A stretch of DNA of 41,574 bases, from positions 1 to 41,574 of IMG/VR virus record IMGVR_UViG_3300025697_000048; one strand, given 5' to 3'. The translations under genes and the position numbers were made by a program. Below the pieces are notes generated by a model, which was not told the DNA's origin, did not search any database, and saw only the letters and a list, made by a program, of their open reading frames with translations. Positions 3,970 to 23,446 of the stretch are shown piece after piece (within the stretch, counting starts at the first letter, position 1; each line of letters opens with the position of its first letter). Source of the stretch: a virus. Taxonomy: Duplodnaviria > Caudoviricetes.

Positions 3970-6900
3970 ATGCCCAACGTGTTCGATGAAATCTACGCCG
4001 AGGACCAAGTAGCGGAAATCAAACCGCCGAGGCCGACCGAGCCGACCGAAACAAACGTGTTCGACGAAGTCTACGGCGCCAAGACAGCGACCGAACCACA
4101 ACCGACCGGACCGTCGACCGGGCCAAACGTGTTCGACGCAATCTACGATCCGTTCGAAGGGGTCGGACTGGATCCGACCGAAGCGAGGAGAAGACTCAAA
4201 ACGCACGGACAAATCACAGCGTCAGTCGACGCGGGCAATGACCTGTCACCAACACAACAGGAAGCAGCCGTCGGACTGTCGGACAGGATGAAAGCCGATA
4301 TCGCGGCCAGGCTCTACGAAAAGGAACGATTCTCAGCGGGGGCGACGATAGGCGACTACACCCAAAACGCTCAGACGTACTCGCTCGCGGCGGGCGATTC
4401 GGAGATCGGCCGGGAACTCGAGAGGCATCGAATAAGCAAGGGCGGGTCGAGTGTTATCGGGGCGTTGACCAACAAGGCCAGAAAGGCCGCGTTCGGCGTC
4501 ATGGAGAAGCATACGCCCCAGGTGATGATGAAGGCGATCGCGGACATCGACGAGCGGCGCCAAGGGCCAAAGGTGCTGACCGACGAGGGGTACGCGATGC
4601 GGTTCGCCATGGCGCATCAGCACTTCCTCAAACAAAAACCGCTTTGGGATATGGCCGCGAAGATCGTCAAGCATCCTGAGGGTGCGTCGAAGGGACTGCT
4701 GGAAGCTGAGGATGCAATATGGGACATGTCGGAAAAGGACGCTGCGGTGTTGCTGTCGTTTGTCTATGAACATTCGGTAGAAAACGCAGAGGAGACAACA
4801 ACGCTTGGCGGGGTCGCAACCCATATAGACCGAGGGTCCGACCAGTTTTGGCAGTTCATCGTCAATATGGCCACTCTCCTGGGCGGCGACGAACACAGCA
4901 ACGACATACAACTGCGATTAAACCGAATCAAGGGCGCTATGCTTGCGGGCGATCCGGTCGCCGGTCGGAATATACTCGAAGAAGGGCTGTTCGGAGCGGC
5001 CGAGATGGTGGTTCCGCTGCTGGCTACAGCAGCTGTTGGCGGTGTCGCTGGCAAGATTGGCGGTAAGGTCGCCGGCAAGATCGCAGGTACGGCGGTGTGG
5101 GTACCGGCGGGTGCGTCTACTATTTACACGGGCATGCGCGATGCGGGGATCGGGCACGGTGAATCGAAAGTAATAGCACTTGCGGGCAGTGTCCCGTATG
5201 CGATGATCGAAATGTTGAAGGCTCGTCAGCTAATACCAAAGAAGTTCCTGGGCAAGGCTCTCCGTAAAGGCGCCAAGGAAGTAGTAAAAAAGACGTTCCG
5301 AAAGGCGGTGACGTCCAGGCTGCTGAAGGCCGGGGCGGTGTATTCAGCCGAATGGATGGAGGAAGTACTACAGTCGGGCGTGACGCTCAGTTCAATAGCG
5401 CTGGGCGCCTATCTGGACGAAAACGCGCCCGGAGTCGACTACAAAAAACAACTCAAAGAGATAAAAAAAGAACTGATCGCCGCGGCCAAGTCGCTGCCCT
5501 GGCTCATGGGCGGCGGGCAGATGGCCGCGGGAGTATCCGACGTTCAGGCTACCAAAACGCGCAAGGCTTTAAACGCCAAGATATCGCGGGCCAGGGCGAT
5601 GGGTAAATATTTTCGCGAAACGGCGAAAAGTATACGAGAAGCCGCCGAGGAACGGAGGACGCCCACAAAGACCACGGAGGTGGCTGGGGAGACCGCTGTT
5701 AAGCCGACGGAGGGCACGACGCCCACTGAGGCGGCTGGGGAGATAGAGGCCGCTGAAGACGCGGAGAGCGACGGCGAACTGCCGGAGAATGTTCTCCACG
5801 AAGATCTGCTCGAAGATGGGTGGGTCCAGGCAACGACGGGCACAGCGACCGAAAAGACGCCGACGGAGGTCGCCGAAACCGTCCGAAGTAACGGCGAACT
5901 GGTCGAGAATGTTGCGGGAAGGTCTTATTACAAGGTGGTTTCCGACGATGATACAGAGGTTCGGGCATACGAAAATGGCGATGTTCTTCTGATGTATCCA
6001 GACGGCAGTAAAGGGTTTGGACGTGGCGGCGAGGGCGATTGGTATCGGCAGGAACCCGCCGATCCGGCCGTTAAAGACGCGATCGGGATGGCGAAAGCGG
6101 CGGTCAAGAGAGGCGATTCGACCGGAAAGATCAAAAAACTCGCCGAAACACTACGCGAAAGCGACGGAGACGAGGCCGCCGATGCGTTCCTGGGCGAGGC
6201 GGGAGAGCATACAGGACCGGATTCTCCCAGCGCCCAACGAAAACTCGGCGCCAAAAAGACCAAAGTGCAGGCCAAAAAGACCAAAGTGCAGGAAATAACT
6301 GCAAAATCGCCTGTGGCCGACATGGCGATCGAAGATCTGTTCGCCGAGGCTGAATCGCTGAAGATCGACCGGGGAAATCTGAACCATGCCGAACTGGTCG
6401 ACGCGGTCGAGCGGGCCAGGAAGGGGCAGGCCGAAGATCAGGCCAAGACCGACGAACTGAAGGAATGGACACGGACCGCCCTACAACCAAAGGGCGGGGC
6501 CACGGCAGCCGAACCGGAAAGCGAACCGAAACCCGGCAAGGTCTCAGCGAAACCCCCCAAGGTTTCAGCCAAACCCGGTAAGGTCTCAGCGAAACCCCCC
6601 AAGGCTACCGGCGATCTTGCGGAAATGAGCTACAACGAGCTGCGGACGCTGGCCAGATCGCTGAGGGTTAGCGCCGCGGGGTCCAAGGAAGCGGTCGCCG
6701 ACCGGATCCGGCAGAAACAAAAAGACGACGCGAAAAAGAAACCGACGGCGCCGGCGGCGAAAGAACCGAGCAAACATCCGATGCGAGATAAGTTCGAGGT
6801 TATCGCCCAGAAACAGGTAGGCGGTTCGGCGGCGGCCGACGTGATGAGGATTTGGGATTCAGTGGCCGCCGAATGGGCGAGACGGACCGGCGGGAAGGCC

Positions 6901-9900
6901 GAGGATTTTTGGGGCCAGGTGCTCGCCGACGTCCGCGAAGGCGGAGACGTCACCAAACCGCCAGGGCTGGATCAATCTGGACTGTTCGACCAGGGCGAGA
7001 CCGATCTGTTCGGCAGGCCGATCGTCCGACCCATGGGCGGCAAACAGGAAACGCTCATAGGGACCGGCGAAATGACCGAACGGGGGGTCGGAGAAGTAGA
7101 GATCACCGACGAACTCGAAGCCGAGGCGGTCAGGATCGTTACGGCGTCCGGGTTCAAGATCAAAACGGCGAAAGAACTGCTGGGGGCGCTGAGAGCGAAA
7201 CACAAGGCCGCAACCGATGCGATGTTCAATAAACCGACCGACCCGCTGCCAGAGGCCGGCGAGGCGCTGATCAGGGCGATCAAGGGCGGTACGCTGTTCC
7301 AGGGCGAACGAGGCGGGGTGCAGTTCATACGCGACGGGAAAGCGATCCTGAGCCTGTTCGAAAACGCCGACGTGTCTACGTTCCTGCACGAACTGATCCA
7401 CATCGTGCGACGCATACCAAACTTCTTCAGCGATGCGGAAATAGCGATACTCGAAAAGTCCGCGGGCGTCGCCGGCGGGAAGTGGAACGTACCGGCCGAA
7501 GAGAAACTGGCAAAGGCCTGGGAAAAGTTCTTCATGACCGGCAAGGCGCCGACCGATATGCCAGGTCTGAAAAAAGTGTTCAAGAGACTCAAAGCACTAC
7601 TGAGGAGACTCTACCAGGCGATCAAACATACAGGCAAAGTAACGCCCGAACTTCGAGCGGTGTTCGATCGGATACTCGGGTCGAACGTAACGCTCGAAAC
7701 GGCCGCCGAAATGAAACGACGGCAAGTCGACGATCGAGCAGCGGCCAGGCAAGTCAAGATGCTCGAAGAGGCTATGAGGCTTCAGTACAACGAATATTAC
7801 GGGCCGATCGAACTGGAACGGGAAGCGGCCGAAGGGGAAGTCGATAGCGGCGCCGAGCAGTACGGTCAAGATGCACTGCCCACCAGGTTCAAGGATAAAC
7901 TGCCGACCGAACTGAAGGAAGCGATGTCAGGGCAGTTCAATCTGATGAGGCTGGTGTCGGTCTCTAAACCGGGCGACCCGGACTACGGGCAATCGACCGG
8001 GGCCGCCGACGCGCTGGGGACACTGGGGGCCGAAGAGTTTGTACGACGACTGGCGCTGATTGGGGCGGGGGCCAAAGGCGAAATAGAACGTATGGCCGAA
8101 AGGCTCGAAGCAGCCGGGGTGTCCGGAGAGTTCAACTACGGATCGCCCGACGTGGACGTACTGAATGTGGTCCGAAAATGGCGACTGCTAAAAGATATCA
8201 AAGGCGAAGGACTCGACGAAAAACCCTACCTCGGCGATGTCGAACAGCGGGTCCGAGAAGCCTACGGGCTCGACGCTGAGGCTATGCTGAAACAGGAGGC
8301 GATCGATGAAGCCCCGAGCCAACTGAGCCAGGGGCCTGTTGAACCTTGGGAAATGACGGGTGAGGAATTCGAGAACGCTGAGGATACCGCGTTCCACGGT
8401 ACAAATCTTGATTTCGACGTGTTCGATCTCGACAAAACAAAAAAGTGGGGAAAGTTCGGCCTGTGGTTCGCCAAGGGAAAAGGCGCAAAGTCGTTTGCTG
8501 AATTGTTCGGCAAGAACATAAAAAGCGCGAAGGTCGTTTTGAATAGTCCCAAGAAAATATCGGCCGAGGTATGGGACGGCATTCGCCTGGAACACGCCAA
8601 AGATGAGGCGTGGTTTAGAAACTGGCGACGTAAACTGATCGCGGACGGATACGATGGCCTTGTCATTGAAGGCGAAACTGAAATGTTCGCCGGCTTTGAA
8701 GTTCACCGACCTATTGACGTCGCCGCTTTCAGTAACGATCAGGTGATGACGCATCGACAATTAGTGCAACGGGCTCTTTACGATGGGCAACCCGTACCCG
8801 ACCGCGTGCTTGCCGAGTATCCTGATCTGGACCGACCGGAAGTGTTGTCCCAGTCGATGCGACGACCTGTAGGACGCAAGAAAAAGGAAAAGGTTTTTAG
8901 TCAGCCGGGTAAGTCGCAACGAGCCGAGGCGGCGAAACGAAACGCCGCCCGAGAAGAAGATCTCGTCAGTGAAAAGAAAGGGGCGATCGCCGGGCGAGTA
9001 CTACGACGGATCCGAAAAGGGTTCCTGAACATCAGCGAACCGATGAAGAGAGTCGATATCTCGCTGGGGAAGGATGTGTCCGCCCGAACCATATCATGGG
9101 CCCACGAACCGGACGCCGGACTGATCGAATGGGAAAATACGCCGCTCGAAGACCTGGGCGTCGCCGGACCGGACGCCAACGAACTGGCCGGCATGAAGTA
9201 CAACGAAGTAATCGAAATGGCCAAAGGAATGCACCTCGACACGCGAGGGTCCAAGAATATAGTAGCGGCTCGGATAATCGCAGACCAGAACGAGCGAGGC
9301 AAAGCCCGAGCACTGGCCGGCGGGTCGACCATCGCCGAGTACGAAAAGGAAATCGACGAACTGCCCGAGGCGTGGCAGACCGATATCAACCTGATCAGAG
9401 GCACGCCGGCGACGCCGGAAGGGGCGGCGCTCCAGAATGAGGCGCTTGGCGAAATACCCGACTATCTCAGACCGACCGGAGAAACGCTCAAAACGATATC
9501 AGACGAGATTTGGGAAGTGGCGCACGAAATAACAGACGGCAATATAGGGTACGTCGAGGGATATTACTACGGCGCGTTTGAAGATTCGGCGGACGGTTCT
9601 CGGACGGTAAGCTCGTTTATGAACTACTACCAGACAACAAAAAGAATGACCGAAAAAAAGGTCTGGCCAACCTACGCCGACGCACTGGCGTTCGGACTGA
9701 AACTCAAGGACACTAACCCGGTGACAAACCTGCGCCGCGAAATGGCCCAGGTCCTGAGACTCAAGGCCATGATCGAGTTCCGACAGTATCTAATAACGAC
9801 CGGAGAAGGCAAGTACATCCTCAAACTCGGCGACGCGACGCCGGAGGAAATGGCGGGCAAGATCGGCGACTTCCAGGAAATCCACGATCCGGTGTTCCGA

Positions 9901-11847
9901 GCGTACACCGTACACCCCGACCTCGCGCATGTAATAAACAACCTGATCAGAGTCAACCAGGTGACGACCAACAAATATCTCCGCGGACTCAGGCACGTGG
10001 CCAACTTCGGGCGGGCGGTGAAGTTCGCCGGCTCGATCTTCCACATGAAAACGATCGCAATCCAGGCGCTGATCGATTCGGGCGGGTACGGTTCGTTCTT
10101 AAACCCCAAGAATATCGGCGATAACCTGGCTAACATAATGACGGTCGGGTTCAGGGACAATGACGTCGTATTCGCGACGCCGGAATATCAGAAGTATGTC
10201 AGGCTGGGCGGCGGGCATCACGGATCGGCCGAATACGAAGCGCAGGCGTGGATCGATCGGATGCTGTCGGGCCGGGACGCGTCGACGCTATGGAAGGTCG
10301 GACGACTCGCGCCGAAACTGGTCACCCAACCGTTCCGGGCGTATACCCGATGGATGTTCAATAAGTGGATACCATGGGTAAAATACGTCAAGTATATGGA
10401 AATGGTCGACCGGGCCGAACAGAAGCACGGTCGGGAACTGACCGACGCCGAACACGTCGAGATAATAAAGGAAGGGTCGAACTTCTACGGCGAACAGAAC
10501 GAACGGATGTACGGACGATCGGCGGGAATGACGTCGGCGCTACGGCTATGGTTCTCCGCTCCGGGGTTCGGAGAAGGCAACTACCGCACCATGTACAAGG
10601 CCCTGACCCAAAAGGGGGCGGGCAGGTCCAGGGCGAATATACCAAACTCGCTGGGATTCACGTTCATGACCGCGTCGATCGCGACGTATCTGCTGACCGG
10701 ACAACTGCCCGAACCGCCGGAAGACTGGGATGATGTGCGGGATCTGTTCAAGGTTAAGACCGGATGGCCGGACGCCAAGGGCCGAGAGATCATGATCGAT
10801 CTGATGAGCTTCGATAAGGATTATTTCCAGCAACTCGTCAGGCCGGCCGGCTTGGCGCTGACGGGTTCGCCGATCAAGGGGCTTGGCGAATTTCTCTCCA
10901 CGATCCCAACGCGACTGGGGCACATGAAAGCATCGCACCTGGGACCGATCGCGGATCTGTATCACCTGTCGTCAGGCGACGCGATATACGACTACTTCGG
11001 AAACAAAGTCTTCTACCTGACCGACCCGTTCACGATCAAACTCCAGAAACTCTCGGTTCGCTGGCTCCGTGAGTTCCAGCCGATATCGCTGAGTGTAGCT
11101 GAGAAGATGATCGGGCAGAGGGTGGCGCCCATAACCGCACTGCTGACCGCACTGCTGGGGATCCGGATGACACTGTCGGAAAAGGAACGGAACGTAAACG
11201 AGATCGCACGGGACGTTTGGGACGCACAGAGCAGGAAAGAAGATATGCTCTGGAATATAGTCAAAATGAACAAACCGTACGAAGCGATTCGAGACTTCAA
11301 CGAAATGGTCGAACGGGTAAAGAGCCATCCGGACATTACCGACGAACTGGTCGAGCGGCTCGATAAACTCACGATCGATCCGGTGAAACTCGTCGCCAAC
11401 AGGATAAAGAGACTCACCGTCCGAACGATCGACGAGAAGGACCGCGAACGGACAATTAACTGGCTCGATAAGATGGGAGTATCGACCGACGACGCCGAGG
11501 ATAAACTCAACGCGGCGATGAGAGAGTCGTACAAGGATTCAAGACTCACACCAGGCGAGCAGAGGCGACGGATAGCCGGCAAGGTCGAACGACTCCAGGC
11601 CAGACTCGAAGGGACCGAAACAGCCGAACTGATGAGGTCGACGGTAGCATGGCTCAGTGAGAGGACATTAAGCGACGATAAGACCGAACAACTGCTGAAG
11701 AAACTACACGATCAGGGGATAACTACCTACGGAAAGGCGCGGATACTACTGTCCAGACATCATCGGAAAAGAAATTCGCAGAAAAAAACCGCTCGCCAAG
11801 CGGTCCGGAGACTGAGGGCCAGATTCAAAGAGCCCGAAGCGAAATAA
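3970..11847 (+). CDS. Giant polyvalent/ejection protein (2625 aa) with zincin-like HExxH, ART-PolyVal-like and SAP/Rho-N-like modules
   Basis: TFLHELIH (~7378-7401); AFHGT..FDVFD..GLWF..GYDGLVI (~8389-8670); LAEMSYNELRTLARSLRVSAAGSKEAVADRI and LAGMKYNEVIEMAKGMHLDTRGSKNIVAARI; hydrophobic G/A-rich helices near the N-terminus. Confidence 0.75.
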   Translation: MPNVFDEIYAEDQVAEIKPPRPTEPTETNVFDEVYGAKTATEPQPTGPSTGPNVFDAIYDPFEGVGLDPTEARRRLKTHGQITASVDAGNDLSPTQQEAAVGLSDRMKADIAARLYEKERFSAGATIGDYTQNAQTYSLAAGDSEIGRELERHRISKGGSSVIGALTNKARKAAFGVMEKHTPQVMMKAIADIDERRQGPKVLTDEGYAMRFAMAHQHFLKQKPLWDMAAKIVKHPEGASKGLLEAEDAIWDMSEKDAAVLLSFVYEHSVENAEETTTLGGVATHIDRGSDQFWQFIVNMATLLGGDEHSNDIQLRLNRIKGAMLAGDPVAGRNILEEGLFGAAEMVVPLLATAAVGGVAGKIGGKVAGKIAGTAVWVPAGASTIYTGMRDAGIGHGESKVIALAGSVPYAMIEMLKARQLIPKKFLGKALRKGAKEVVKKTFRKAVTSRLLKAGAVYSAEWMEEVLQSGVTLSSIALGAYLDENAPGVDYKKQLKEIKKELIAAAKSLPWLMGGGQMAAGVSDVQATKTRKALNAKISRARAMGKYFRETAKSIREAAEERRTPTKTTEVAGETAVKPTEGTTPTEAAGEIEAAEDAESDGELPENVLHEDLLEDGWVQATTGTATEKTPTEVAETVRSNGELVENVAGRSYYKVVSDDDTEVRAYENGDVLLMYPDGSKGFGRGGEGDWYRQEPADPAVKDAIGMAKAAVKRGDSTGKIKKLAETLRESDGDEAADAFLGEAGEHTGPDSPSAQRKLGAKKTKVQAKKTKVQEITAKSPVADMAIEDLFAEAESLKIDRGNLNHAELVDAVERARKGQAEDQAKTDELKEWTRTALQPKGGATAAEPESEPKPGKVSAKPPKVSAKPGKVSAKPPKATGDLAEMSYNELRTLARSLRVSAAGSKEAVADRIRQKQKDDAKKKPTAPAAKEPSKHPMRDKFEVIAQKQVGGSAAADVMRIWDSVAAEWARRTGGKAEDFWGQVLADVREGGDVTKPPGLDQSGLFDQGETDLFGRPIVRPMGGKQETLIGTGEMTERGVGEVEITDELEAEAVRIVTASGFKIKTAKELLGALRAKHKAATDAMFNKPTDPLPEAGEALIRAIKGGTLFQGERGGVQFIRDGKAILSLFENADVSTFLHELIHIVRRIPNFFSDAEIAILEKSAGVAGGKWNVPAEEKLAKAWEKFFMTGKAPTDMPGLKKVFKRLKALLRRLYQAIKHTGKVTPELRAVFDRILGSNVTLETAAEMKRRQVDDRAAARQVKMLEEAMRLQYNEYYGPIELEREAAEGEVDSGAEQYGQDALPTRFKDKLPTELKEAMSGQFNLMRLVSVSKPGDPDYGQSTGAADALGTLGAEEFVRRLALIGAGAKGEIERMAERLEAAGVSGEFNYGSPDVDVLNVVRKWRLLKDIKGEGLDEKPYLGDVEQRVREAYGLDAEAMLKQEAIDEAPSQLSQGPVEPWEMTGEEFENAEDTAFHGTNLDFDVFDLDKTKKWGKFGLWFAKGKGAKSFAELFGKNIKSAKVVLNSPKKISAEVWDGIRLEHAKDEAWFRNWRRKLIADGYDGLVIEGETEMFAGFEVHRPIDVAAFSNDQVMTHRQLVQRALYDGQPVPDRVLAEYPDLDRPEVLSQSMRRPVGRKKKEKVFSQPGKSQRAEAAKRNAAREEDLVSEKKGAIAGRVLRRIRKGFLNISEPMKRVDISLGKDVSARTISWAHEPDAGLIEWENTPLEDLGVAGPDANELAGMKYNEVIEMAKGMHLDTRGSKNIVAARIIADQNERGKARALAGGSTIAEYEKEIDELPEAWQTDINLIRGTPATPEGAALQNEALGEIPDYLRPTGETLKTISDEIWEVAHEITDGNIGYVEGYYYGAFEDSADGSRTVSSFMNYYQTTKRMTEKKVWPTYADALAFGLKLKDTNPVTNLRREMAQVLRLKAMIEFRQYLITTGEGKYILKLGDATPEEMAGKIGDFQEIHDPVFRAYTVHPDLAHVINNLIRVNQVTTNKYLRGLRHVANFGRAVKFAGSIFHMKTIAIQALIDSGGYGSFLNPKNIGDNLANIMTVGFRDNDVVFATPEYQKYVRLGGGHHGSAEYEAQAWIDRMLSGRDASTLWKVGRLAPKLVTQPFRAYTRWMFNKWIPWVKYVKYMEMVDRAEQKHGRELTDAEHVEIIKEGSNFYGEQNERMYGRSAGMTSALRLWFSAPGFGEGNYRTMYKALTQKGAGRSRANIPNSLGFTFMTASIATYLLTGQLPEPPEDWDDVRDLFKVKTGWPDAKGREIMIDLMSFDKDYFQQLVRPAGLALTGSPIKGLGEFLSTIPTRLGHMKASHLGPIADLYHLSSGDAIYDYFGNKVFYLTDPFTIKLQKLSVRWLREFQPISLSVAEKMIGQRVAPITALLTALLGIRMTLSEKERNVNEIARDVWDAQSRKEDMLWNIVKMNKPYEAIRDFNEMVERVKSHPDITDELVERLDKLTIDPVKLVANRIKRLTVRTIDEKDRERTINWLDKMGVSTDDAEDKLNAAMRESYKDSRLTPGEQRRRIAGKVERLQARLEGTETAELMRSTVAWLSERTLSDDKTEQLLKKLHDQGITTYGKARILLSRHHRKRNSQKKTARQAVRRLRARFKEPEAK

Positions 11848-12247: not shown

Positions 12248-12420
12248 TTATGATGTGTGTGATAAATGAAAAATGCGGACTCTGCCGAGATTGGCTCGAC
12301 GGCTACTGTCGCGGTATAGACACGCCGCCGGGCGGGTGCTACGTCCAGCCGGATATGATGACCGCCGACGATCGCGCCGAGGTCGGTAGACTTTGCGGCG
12401 AGCCTGCCGCAGACCAATGA
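12244..12420 (+). CDS. Small Cys-rich protein (..CVINEKCGLCRDWLDGYCRG..)
   Basis: GTG at 12244 overlaps the previous stop (GTGA), in-frame ATG at 12250, TGA at 12418-12420; not in the ORF track. Confidence 0.5.
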   Translation: MIMMCVINEKCGLCRDWLDGYCRGIDTPPGGCYVQPDMMTADDRAEVGRLCGEPAADQ

Positions 12421-12453
12421 TGAATGCGGAATTCTGAATGATGAATGAACGGC
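12413..12453 (+). repeat. Repeat family A copy 1 (ACCAATGATGAATGCGGAATTCTGAATGATGAATGAACGGC)
   Basis: 41-bp exact match to 13023-13063; variants at ~15926, ~21569 and 40705. Confidence 0.95.
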
Positions 12454-12790: not shown

Positions 12791-13023
12791 GCCAACTTGA
12801 GTTAATAGAGACCGTCGACCTGGTCGAGGAACTTCTCAATCGATGCGATATCGGCGCTGTTGTCTTTATGAAGATCGGGGTCCAGGACAATACGAATCTC
12901 TATATCCGGCGATGGAAAGGCAACACGCACACAGTAATGGGACTCTTAACCGATATGCAGATGAAGGCAATGTTGTATTTCGAGGAAGTTGAAGAATCTG
13001 ACGCCGAGGAGGATGAACTGTAA
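12787..13023 (+). CDS. Hypothetical protein (acidic, 78 aa)
   Basis: ATGA-coupled to the upstream gene; protein-like composition. Confidence 0.7.
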   Translation: MSQLELIETVDLVEELLNRCDIGAVVFMKIGVQDNTNLYIRRWKGNTHTVMGLLTDMQMKAMLYFEEVEESDAEEDEL

Positions 13024-13063
13024 CCAATGATGAATGCGGAATTCTGAATGATGAATGAACGGC
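13023..13063 (+). repeat. Repeat family A copy 2
   Basis: Identical to 12413-12453. Confidence 0.95.
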
Positions 13064-13903: not shown

Positions 13904-13934
13904 CCGCCCGCGACTTCCGCTTGCGGTTTAACAA
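13904..13934 (+). repeat. Repeat family B copy 1 (CCGCCCGCGACTTCCGCTTGCGGTTTAACAA)
   Basis: 31-bp exact match to 15983-16013; 18-bp core also at 20157-20174. Confidence 0.95.
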
Positions 13935-15934: not shown

Positions 15935-15956
15935 ACCTGCCTGCCGGCAGGCAGGT
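15935..15956. repeat. Perfect 22-bp palindrome ACCTGCCTGCCGGCAGGCAGGT inside a family A copy
   Basis: Self-reverse-complementary; interrupts the TGATGAA^TGC(G/T)GAATTCTGAATG consensus. Confidence 0.9.
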
Positions 15957-15982
15957 GCTGAATTCTGAATGATGAACGAACG

Positions 15983-16013
15983 CCGCCCGCGACTTCCGCT
16001 TGCGGTTTAACAA
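15983..16013 (+). repeat. Repeat family B copy 2
   Basis: Identical to 13904-13934. Confidence 0.95.
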
Positions 16014-16050
16014 CTAGCCCGGCCCTGGGCCCAACAAAAGGAATAATGAA

Positions 16051-16719
16051 ATGGAACCTATGACTATCGAAGAATTTTGTGCGTATCTGAGAAGTGAGAT
16101 CGAGGGGACGAAATGCGTAATCGTCGGCGAACTGCTGAATCACGCAGATATGATCCGGACGGATAAGGACCTGATGCTTTCGCCCGGGAATATCCCCGCC
16201 GAACGCAGAGTCAACATGAAGGAGAATATCACCCTGGCGTTCCGACACCTGGAAGATGCGCGAATGAGGCTTGGTAAGGTGATGCAAGCCTACCAGGGCG
16301 GCGTCTCGATCTTCGACCGCGACGGTCAGACGGTCAGCGGACCCGAGAGCAAAACGCCGGAAGTCAGTCCCGACCGTCTGCTGGCGATCGCTCAGGCTTG
16401 CCACGAAGCGAATCGCGAGTACTGCATTTCCATCGGCGACCATTCACAACAGACGTGGAAGGACACGGCACAGTGGCAGAGGGATTCAGCCATCGACGGG
16501 GTCAAGCACGCCATCGCAGGCGACCGCACGCCCGCCGAACAACATGAGGCATGGGTCCTGGCCAAGGTAAAGGCCGGATGGACGTACGCCGCGGTCAAAG
16601 ACGGCGAACTCAGGGAACATCCGTGCCTGGTCCCGTACGATCAACTGCCCGACGAACAGAAGAAGAAAGACGAAATTTTCCTGGACGTTGTGAATAACGG
16701 CATGTCCGAAGACGAATAG
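16051..16719 (+). CDS. RyR-domain protein with N-terminal Acb2/Tad1-like helical hairpin
   Basis: C-term IAQACHE..AEQHEAWVLAKVKAGWTY..KDGELREHPCLVPYDQLPDEQKKKD is a typical RyR repeat; N-term NITLAFRHLEDARMRLGK. Confidence 0.8.
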   Translation: MEPMTIEEFCAYLRSEIEGTKCVIVGELLNHADMIRTDKDLMLSPGNIPAERRVNMKENITLAFRHLEDARMRLGKVMQAYQGGVSIFDRDGQTVSGPESKTPEVSPDRLLAIAQACHEANREYCISIGDHSQQTWKDTAQWQRDSAIDGVKHAIAGDRTPAEQHEAWVLAKVKAGWTYAAVKDGELREHPCLVPYDQLPDEQKKKDEIFLDVVNNGMSEDE

Positions 16720-16728
16720 CAAAAGACC

Positions 16729-16837
16729 GGCAACTGGCAACTGGCAACTGGCGACGGCTAGAAACCAGCAGCCAACCAAACGTTGAACCGTCGCCGTTGT
16801 CGTCGCCAGTTGCCAGTTGCCAGTAACCAGTTGCCAG
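16729..16837. repeat. Inverted GGCAACT/AGTTGCC heptamer arrays forming a long hairpin (family C)
   Basis: (GGCAACT)3GGCGACGGC at 16729-16758 pairs with GTCGTCGCC(AGTTGCC)2AGT from 16799. Confidence 0.85.
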
Positions 16838-16950
16838 TCCGTTAAAACAGTCTTCTTCGCAACGCCGACAGGGCTAGTCGTCTTGTTCCAGGCGGCCGGA
16901 TGGTCCGGCCGCCGCCCTGCCGGTGGAATCAATCTATTTGAGGTGCTAAC

Positions 16951-19672: not shown

Positions 19673-20172
19673 TGATTATGACTCGTTCAGCCGCGGACCG
19701 CTGGGGTATTGAGTGGCCCCCTGACGTAGCCCTCATGGAAACAGATATTCGCGGGCGGCGGATTGAGACCACCTGGTCGGATCTCCACGACCGCCGGCGA
19801 GAGCGGCAACGAGACCGACTGAGCCGCATTCGCCAGGTCCCGCCGCCGCGTCGGACGCCATGTTACGTATGGGTCGTTTACGTGCCCGGCTGGATATACT
19901 CCGGCTGGTGGTGCTACGTCGTCACGCTGCGAGATAGCATCGCCGTCAACTTTCAAGGTTTTGACCGAGAACTGGCACTGTCGATTATGGAGAGCGTGCC
20001 GCTGGGCATACTCCCGATCGAGGCGAACTTCGTTCGGTGGATGAAGGAACTGTTCAAACGCCGGCCAAGGAAACCAACGGGCGAGGACAAGCGAAAGGCC
20101 GCGACAATTATAGGCTGGCTCGACAACGACAGAAAGTTCACGCTCGGGAAACGCCGTCCGCTTGCGGTTTAA
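19669..20172 (+). CDS. Hypothetical protein (Trp/Arg-rich)
   Basis: GGGG SD and ATGA overlap; stop codon lies within the family B core. Confidence 0.6.
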   Translation: MMIMTRSAADRWGIEWPPDVALMETDIRGRRIETTWSDLHDRRRERQRDRLSRIRQVPPPRRTPCYVWVVYVPGWIYSGWWCYVVTLRDSIAVNFQGFDRELALSIMESVPLGILPIEANFVRWMKELFKRRPRKPTGEDKRKAATIIGWLDNDRKFTLGKRRPLAV

Positions 20173-20237
20173 CAGAACAATCCCGATGTACATCGGAATC
20201 CAATAACCAACGCGGCGACGGCATAAAGGAAAGGCGC

Positions 20238-21316: not shown

Positions 21317-21583
21317 ATGATGGCGCAACATGAGATCGATTCGAAAATCAAAGACGCACTGCAAAAGTTCGGGTTCGGTAGAGAAGCACAATGCCCGGAA
21401 CTCAGGATCGCGATCGCGGCGGTGCTACGCGAACTCACCGCCGACGATGTCGAGGTCCGCATAGCGGCCGGTGAACTGATCGCGGCGTTCCCGCCGGCGG
21501 TGGGCGAGGGAATCGACGAATTCCACATACCGGGCTATCTCGTCGAAAACCTGCGAAAAGCGATAACCGGCAGTGATGAATGA
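21317..21583 (+). CDS. Hypothetical protein
   Basis: AAGGA SD; stop supplied by a family A repeat. Confidence 0.65.
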   Translation: MMAQHEIDSKIKDALQKFGFGREAQCPELRIAIAAVLRELTADDVEVRIAAGELIAAFPPAVGEGIDEFHIPGYLVENLRKAITGSDE

Positions 21584-21609
21584 GGAATGATGAATGATGA
21601 ATGAACGGC
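21569..21609 (+). repeat. Repeat family A variant
   Basis: GGCAGTGATGAATGAGGAATGATGAATGATGAATGAACGGC, near-identical to 40705-40745. Confidence 0.9.
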
Positions 21610-21756
21610 GACGGCGTGATTTAACCACGAAAGAACACATAGAACACAAAGAGAAAGGCAATCATGGGAAACGAGACAGAATGGATGGAAACGGGAAGAG
21701 GATGTTGAATGATTTCGCCAGTTGCCAGTTGCCAGGCGAAAGAAAGGAGCCGTCTA

Positions 21757-23069: not shown

Positions 23070-23446
23070 CCGGGAACCGGGAACATATAGACGGGCAGAT
23101 ACAGATCGCTCAAATGGCCTGGCGACGCCGGATGATGAAGGCCGCGGACTTCCGAATGCAGGTCTACGAACTGGTGACCGGCCTGCCGCGGACGACGCCG
23201 GGACCGCTCATGCCGGGCGTTGTTGAAAAGGCTCGGGAGGTCGTCACGAAACTCAATCGGCGAAAGGCAGTTCCGATTCTGGATTGCCAGTTGCCAGTCA
23301 CCAGTTGCCAGTTGCCAGGAGCAAAGCGACATGAGAGCGATAAAAAAACAGACGATAATGAATCGAGAGAAGTTCAGGCGGATGATAAGGAAAAAATCGT
23401 TCGCCGAACTGGCGAAATTGATACGGGCCAACTCGATCGCGATTGA
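23066..23446 (+). CDS. Hypothetical protein, C-terminus extended through a family C repeat
   Basis: AGGAG SD and ATGA overlap; CQLPVTSCQLP is translated repeat. Confidence 0.5.
   Translation: MTGNREHIDGQIQIAQMAWRRRMMKAADFRMQVYELVTGLPRTTPGPLMPGVVEKAREVVTKLNRRKAVPILDCQLPVTSCQLPGAKRHESDKKTDDNESREVQADDKEKIVRRTGEIDTGQLDRD

Follow-up and report, generated by a model that had tools for sequence, protein, structure and literature searches.

A phage protein joining a hairpin of a divergent Acb2 clade to a RyR domain: a candidate double anti-Thoeris sponge

The gene and its genomic setting

The window, i.e. the whole stretch of 41,574 nucleotides that was analysed, contains terminase and tail-collar matches and therefore represents a phage genome. 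It carries an open reading frame for a protein of 222 amino acids, in which a hairpin domain is followed by a linker and a RyR domain (Table 1). On one side the gene is flanked by a ParB-like gene, on the other by a gene without assigned function, and two DNA methyltransferase genes are found nearby. From these non-structural neighbours we infer a location in the early region, as the preliminary description had it, but a consensus scan found no promoter.

Table 1. Positions of the fusion gene, its parts and other elements in the window.
Feature	Position	Strand	Basis
222-aa ORF with Acb2-clade hairpin and RyR domain	16051..16719	+	ORF call; ATG start, TAG stop
Shine-Dalgarno-like AAGGA	16038..16042	+	read from sequence; 8 nt ahead of ATG
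Hairpin domain assigned to the Acb2 family, residues 1-90	16051..16320	+	model, alignments, quick tree
Motif quoted in the preliminary description, residues 59-76, on helix 2	16225..16278	+	translation
Linker, polar, with proline, residues 91-106	16321..16368	+	sequence; lies between the two domain models
RyR (PF02026) domain, predicted sponge type	16369..16707	+	Pfam, alignments, model, Foldseek
DXD-type glycosyltransferase gene	1026..1679		
Gene for a 2,625-aa protein	3970..11847		SAP and ART-PolyVal matches, weak
41-nt intergenic repeats	12413..12453, 13023..13063, 15944..15984, 21569..21609		
31-nt intergenic element	13904..13934, 15983..16013, 20145..20175		
Heptamer tandem arrays	16726..16756, 16801..16839, 21717..21749, 23272..23332		

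The junction between the two domains is bridged without letter differences by contigs of three out of four runs, one of these three being perhaps the source run. In addition, another full-length hairpin-RyR protein, P0002, shows no more than 5 differences over the 222 positions. The fusion is therefore not an assembly artefact, and the two-domain gene seen in the preliminary description is genuine. PADLOC and NCBIfam offered no model for the 222-aa protein.

Some further elements of the window were recorded. The first two copies of the 31-nt element are identical and lie 5' of the ParB-like gene and of the sponge gene; the third copy matches at 74%, and more copies occur elsewhere in the runs examined. 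This element is a possible regulatory site. The 41-nt repeats contain short internal repeats, and copies one and two are identical. The first two heptamer arrays form an inverted pair just past the stop codon of the sponge gene, which could act as a terminator or as an RNA-stabilising hairpin. The 2,625-aa protein, whose SAP and ART-PolyVal matches are both under the cut-off, is possibly a polyvalent injected phage protein, and the glycosyltransferase gene adjoins the tail genes.

The RyR domain

Residues 163-207 match the Pfam profile PF02026 (E 1.6e-11, 44.7 bits with a cut-off of 27.4), a match that spans only profile positions 27-71 of 91. Residues 113-219, however, align without a gap to the whole C-terminal domain of CB3 gp73 (54 of 107 residues identical, 50%), a protein which shares 181 of 183 residues with RyR Tad gp68 and is by eye identical to the RyDEP sponge homolog H7. 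Because this gapless alignment covers the full tested C-terminal domain, the region represents one complete phage-type repeat, and the full RyR repeat claimed before is borne out. The domain is modelled as four helices (pLDDT 96.6), every match listed by Foldseek for this model is a RyR repeat (best E 5.6e-4), and with tblastn the domain was found in 292 of 50,697 phage records.

In the preliminary description phage RyR domains were supposed to form an uncharacterised class of sponges. We rejected this view as outdated, since two preprints of 2026 already describe an anti-Thoeris function of phage RyR proteins. RyDEP (gp78 of mycobacteriophage DyoEdafos) cleaves gcADPR and is encoded within a NARP1 operon (PMC13232231). 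RyR Tad, which is gp68 of Pectobacterium phage vB_PatP_CB1, is described in the accessible part of 10.64898/2026.06.04.730250 as a dimeric sponge with a KD of 43 nM for 3'cADPR, which also binds 2'cADPR and cADPR. In the published RyR family the gcADPR pocket sits within each subunit of a dimer. Like the protein studied here, RyR Tad and the sponge-type RyDEP homologs H4/H7 contain one phage RyR repeat, with 50% identity across 107 aa, and RyR Tad is likewise a two-domain protein with a C-terminal RyR domain.

The ligand residues of RyR Tad, H129, W132, K147, H154, K170 and D171, correspond to H165, W168, K183, H190, K206 and D207 and are all kept (6/6). Residues H75, W78, H100 and D117 of RyDEP, a member of the same Pfam family, are all present as well, and these include the catalytic pair H75/D117, found here as H165/D207. 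It could be argued from this pair that the domain is a RyDEP-type glycosidase which opens gcADPR to linear ADPR, while the hairpin captures the signal for it. We consider this highly improbable, as the same His/Asp pair occurs in sponges that do not cleave: of eight RyDEP homologs six bound the signal and none cleaved it (PMC13232231). Moreover, the domain shares 56 of 116 residues (48%) with the sponge and only 32 of 114 (28%) with the glycosidase RyDEP, and H118, N121 and K172 are common to the domain and the sponge but not to the glycosidase. Finally, among the subset of 42 window ORFs scanned against Pfam there is no NARP1-type enzyme. Judged by these sequence comparisons, the RyR domain is very probably a gcADPR sponge.

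The N-terminal domain of RyR Tad differs from the hairpin found here, as it has an unrelated beta-containing fold. The corresponding residues 1-70 of P0304 (L081:1273-1482) match PHROG 9467 but not PF11195 at E<=0.01; judged by a motif, they look Tad2-like. In the accessible part of 10.64898/2026.06.04.730250 this fold is described as being of unknown function.

The hairpin domain and its clade

The N-terminal domain is modelled as two antiparallel helices (residues 6-28 and 52-81, pLDDT 90.5) with a less certain tail, so that the predicted hairpin fold is present, and the Acb2-like motif noted before lies on its second helix. The label given to this motif, Acb2/Tad1-like, holds for one half only. 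Tad1 consists of an N-terminal antiparallel beta-sheet followed by two helices (PMC10680739, accessible part), whereas the hairpin model contains no beta-strand of at least three residues and is therefore of the Acb2 and not of the Tad1 type; the Acb2 half agrees with the filing of the clade and with its tested member, homolog 29 (both below). Also the consensus given for such helices, A-x-x-H-[VL]-E-E-A-x-M, is approximate, as the tested Acb2 proteins given in PMC12393519 mostly have T-K-L-E-E-A at this place.

Structure comparisons with the hairpin monomer were of little help. Foldseek against PDB and BFVD gave no rows at E<=0.001, and the best VIA match (Z 8.1) was to unrelated hairpins, all matches being generically helical. 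Acb2 and Tad1 are missing from the structure matches listed, which excludes neither. PDB sequence searches with the hairpin or its profile did not find Acb2. All leads from the ESM Atlas stayed below 0.9, one of them being an Acb2/Tad1 cluster at 0.87.

Sequence searches revealed a large group of relatives. Among 7,024 candidates the hairpin family forms 1,262 clusters at 90% identity; when the threshold is set to 50% identity the number is 1,034, and 817 of these have E<=1e-10. Most stored members (210 out of 296) are not longer than 120 aa. A search of cultured phages with one clade member gave no match. Viral contigs gave 99 clade matches, of which 80 were kept, and genome bins gave 16, eight of them in bins labelled as Planctomycetota or Verrucomicrobiota groups, to which many clade contigs are linked, although a bin is no proof of the host. 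The Pfam profile for Acb2, PF24729, does not match the own hairpin domain at E<=1 and matches 66 of 106 aligned clade members weakly, with a best E of 5.2e-5 and a best listed score of 24.9 against a cut-off of 27 bits. Because homolog 29 is also without a match at E<=0.01, we conclude that PF24729 under-covers the clade. Hadary et al. 2025 (PMC12393519) list the clade under Acb2 in their Table S1; we found its motif in 82 rows, of 9,141 Acb2 rows stated in their methods. We therefore rejected the possibility of a new sponge family, and by sequence we assign the hairpin to a divergent clade of Acb2.

Near-invariant in the clade are R14, N59, R65, H66, E68, D69, R73, K76 and Q79 as well as the tail G83-G84-x-S86-x-F88-D89. 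Out of 296 members, E68 and R73 are found in 296, D69 and R65 in 293, K76, G84 and S86 in 291, R14 in 289, H66 in 285 and D89 in 264, counts which are inflated because the members were found with the clade motif. All these near-invariant residues are kept in the 222-aa protein, which departs from the clade consensus at a few places (E58, I24). These departures would fit a decayed hairpin, or one that serves only as an oligomerisation scaffold while the RyR domain alone binds the signal, and the N-terminal domain of RyR Tad on its own is indeed without anti-Thoeris activity according to the accessible part of 10.64898/2026.06.04.730250. Such a passive role is nevertheless very unlikely in view of the conserved residues and of the many short stand-alone members, one of which, homolog 29, is active alone.

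A tested member of the clade

Homolog 29 (locus L082, P0210) shares 44 of 90 residues with the own hairpin (49%, E 2e-30), and in a quick tree of 86 rows both are placed on the same 19-row branch with an SH-aLRT support of 93. It belongs to the same subclade and has the long loop and the tail as well, but it is a stand-alone protein of 88 aa and carries D, N and C in place of H66, D69 and L74, which are the residues of the own hairpin and of the majority of clade members.

According to row 29 of Table S2 in PMC12393519 this protein is plaque-positive against type I Thoeris. In the same source the liquid screen was negative for type II Thoeris, E. coli Pycsar and both CBASS systems; the CBASS negatives come from this screen only and cover two signals. 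It is plaque-negative against type IV Thoeris, and against Bacillus Pycsar it is liquid-positive and plaque-negative. In rows 1-44 we counted 10 proteins as positive against type I, the same as in the text of that paper, which supports our reading of the columns. The function attributed to the hairpin comes from this one table row and one homolog; the signal-depletion and binding assays in the accessible part of PMC12393519 covered other homologs, and signal specificity is stated there to vary within sponge families.

Because homolog 29 works without both H66 and D69, these residues are not needed for activity against type I Thoeris. One could suppose that the typical members with His66 and Asp69 are tuned to an ADPR-type signal that is different or undescribed, or that they cleave the signal. 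What was measured for homolog 29 would then be a side activity of an atypical member. The polar residues are unusually strictly conserved, the clade is a discrete family with no cultured-phage match, and 19 of 84 tested sponges have no known target (PMC12393519, accessible part). This conservation is, however, inflated by the motif-based retrieval, homolog 29 is active with neither residue, and an Acb2-family enzyme is not reported in the literature examined, so that we regard this explanation as unlikely.

Pocket residues in comparison to canonical Acb2

In PaMx33 Acb2 the residues R67 and T74 bind cyclic trinucleotides, Y11 of the N-terminal arm stacks on the base and K26 is also part of the pocket (PMC10312549, accessible part). 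In homolog 43 (PDB 9PTQ) K55 holds the diphosphate of 3'cADPR, as given in PMC12393519. The 222-aa protein shares with both the two antiparallel helices and, in the presumed register, a basic residue on each helix, R14 and K76. It differs from them by lacking the R67/T74 pair and an arm of the Y11 type, and by an additional conserved C-terminal tail.

An hhalign comparison with a five-sequence canonical Acb2 profile was weak (E 0.031, probability 1.6%). With the single sequences of PaMx33 Acb2, which gave no alignment, and a Tad1-like ORF nothing useful was obtained, controls giving E 0.22-0.75. In the profile register, which agrees with the Pfam coordinates, R65 falls on the conserved Thr, and residue 58 falls on the Arg that stands seven residues earlier. 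In these two agreeing but weak registers R67/T74 of PaMx33 become E58/R65 here, and in the clade Ala58 is found in 273 and Arg65 in 293 of 296 members. Because Ala58/Arg65 replace the Arg/Thr pair across the clade, the cyclic-trinucleotide site does not seem to be kept, and it would not be used as in PaMx33 Acb2. R14, placed by eye, is likely the equivalent of K26/K19, and K76 lies 11 residues past the Thr position like K55 in homolog 43 (by-eye count); both are predicted to line the vertex pocket. Only 13 residues stand ahead of R14 in the 222-aa protein, which has no N-terminal arm. Of the 194 stand-alone members, 107 also have fewer than 14 residues before R14, not enough for a Y11 arm. The conserved Gly-Gly-x-Ser-x-aromatic-Asp tail may form a lid that replaces the absent arm.

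These observations bear on the range of signals. The preliminary description had extended the protein's reach to CBASS and type III signalling. In this case the RyR domain would take Thoeris signals and the hairpin cyclic oligonucleotides of CBASS or type III systems. Such a division of labour would be in line with published sponge fusions of differing specificity (Acb4-Tad2, Acb4-Sequestin) and, in the accessible part of PMC12393519, with the inhibition of CBASS by most tested Acb2 proteins and with homolog 5, a member of another clade with a similar Gly-Gly-Val-Ser tail, which blocked a 3'3'-cGAMP system. We nevertheless consider it rather unlikely, and the wider reach probably wrong, as homolog 29 of the same subclade is CBASS-negative, the trinucleotide residues are replaced and the arm is too short.

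Fusions of the clade and of the RyR domain

The preliminary description had proposed to count RyR fusions with sponge domains. Seven of the 296 stored clade members carry a RyR domain, the 222-aa protein and P0002 in the order hairpin-RyR and five others in the order RyR-hairpin. For both orders to arise, two or more events or a single rearrangement must have taken place; in the quick tree the RyR fusions appear at three places, and a single origin is not rejected. Sequestin (PF21825, named so in PMC12265669, accessible part) is carried by three of the 296 members, at either end. The known-sponge partners of the clade, RyR and Sequestin, are both anti-Thoeris families. Among 58 matches to the whole protein the RyR domain is also joined to PF24729 (3), Acb4 (PF13876, 4) and Tad2 (PF11195, 1), and in Table S1 of PMC12393519 four rows contain a RyR domain fused to another Acb2 clade, without comment in the accessible part of the paper. 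The clade motif is absent from seven supplementary files of PMC12265669. In the openly available literature covered, supplements to the RyR Tad preprint left aside, a published description of the Acb2-RyR pairing was not found.

In P0020 a RyR domain is apparently inserted into a longer helical protein, the flanks of which look Acb2-hairpin-like by eye.

Acb4-Tad2 and Acb4-Sequestin contain two unrelated sponge domains per chain, as is the case here, and these fusions widen the signal range (PMC12265669; 10.64898/2026.06.04.730250, accessible parts). They pair anti-CBASS with anti-Thoeris activity, whereas in the present protein each domain has its nearest tested relative among anti-Thoeris proteins. 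Both modules as well as the habit of fusing sponges are already known, and no new class is opened. What is added is the anti-Thoeris activity of the hairpin's tested relative, which points to a double sponge for one and the same pathway. The case probes the idea that sponge fusions cover two defence systems.

Proposed mechanism

The notion that both modules are immune-signal sponges is likely, given the anti-Thoeris relatives RyR Tad and homolog 29. Because of the profile of homolog 29, the missing Arg/Thr pair and the likeness to RyR Tad, the 222-aa protein is probably a double anti-Thoeris sponge rather than a generalist for Thoeris, CBASS and type III, with both modules trapping gcADPR signals of Thoeris and so keeping ThsA off. 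The hairpin and the RyR domain would each bind and sequester 3'cADPR, and probably also 2'cADPR, the RyR domain presumably holding the signal rather than cleaving it, and the ThsA effector of the host would be left off during infection. By analogy with known structures, the hairpins would form an Acb2-like hexamer (a trimer of dimers), to which three RyR dimers would be tethered by the 16-residue linkers.

Since both nearest tested relatives are anti-Thoeris, the fusion may serve a greater capacity, a wider cover of ADPR isomers (2'cADPR, 3'cADPR and others) or the avoidance of decoys. The last benefit, that cyclic-dinucleotide decoys of Panoptes would not be bound, is speculation. On the other hand, the wider signal range of published fusions argues that also the two domains here differ in their ligand, which would speak against a double anti-Thoeris sponge.

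A more far-reaching proposal regards the clade as a functionally separate branch of Acb2 with about 1,000 clusters, almost all of them from uncultured phages. Its His-Glu-Asp-Arg pocket and tail lid would serve an undescribed ADPR-type signal or the cleavage of it, and the RyR and Sequestin fusions would be ADPR-only sponges avoiding Panoptes decoys. We give this proposal only a small chance of being right; if true, the 222-aa protein could be used as bait to isolate a bacterial immune messenger that is new. Under the double anti-Thoeris reading, the large Acb2 clade missed by Pfam, for which our searches yielded a single tested member and no structure, is a candidate anti-Thoeris branch.

Further observations on the clade

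Of 67 distinct viral loci, 4 have sponge-family genes in the neighbourhood of the clade gene (126 ORFs scanned, three of them picked by local profiles, no control set), and we give such neighbours little weight as evidence. Six related viral loci (L028, L049, L052-L055) have a PEP-CTERM-tailed gene directly upstream of the clade gene. Five further members, P0243, P0269, P0313, P0173 and P0311, have a C-terminal ubiquitin-like domain and are placed on one branch (SH-aLRT 94); PF14452 is over the cut-off in P0243 and P0269, just under it in P0313 and recognised by eye in P0173 and P0311. In this fusion a sponge may be coupled to a mimic directed against defence systems that use ubiquitin-like conjugation.
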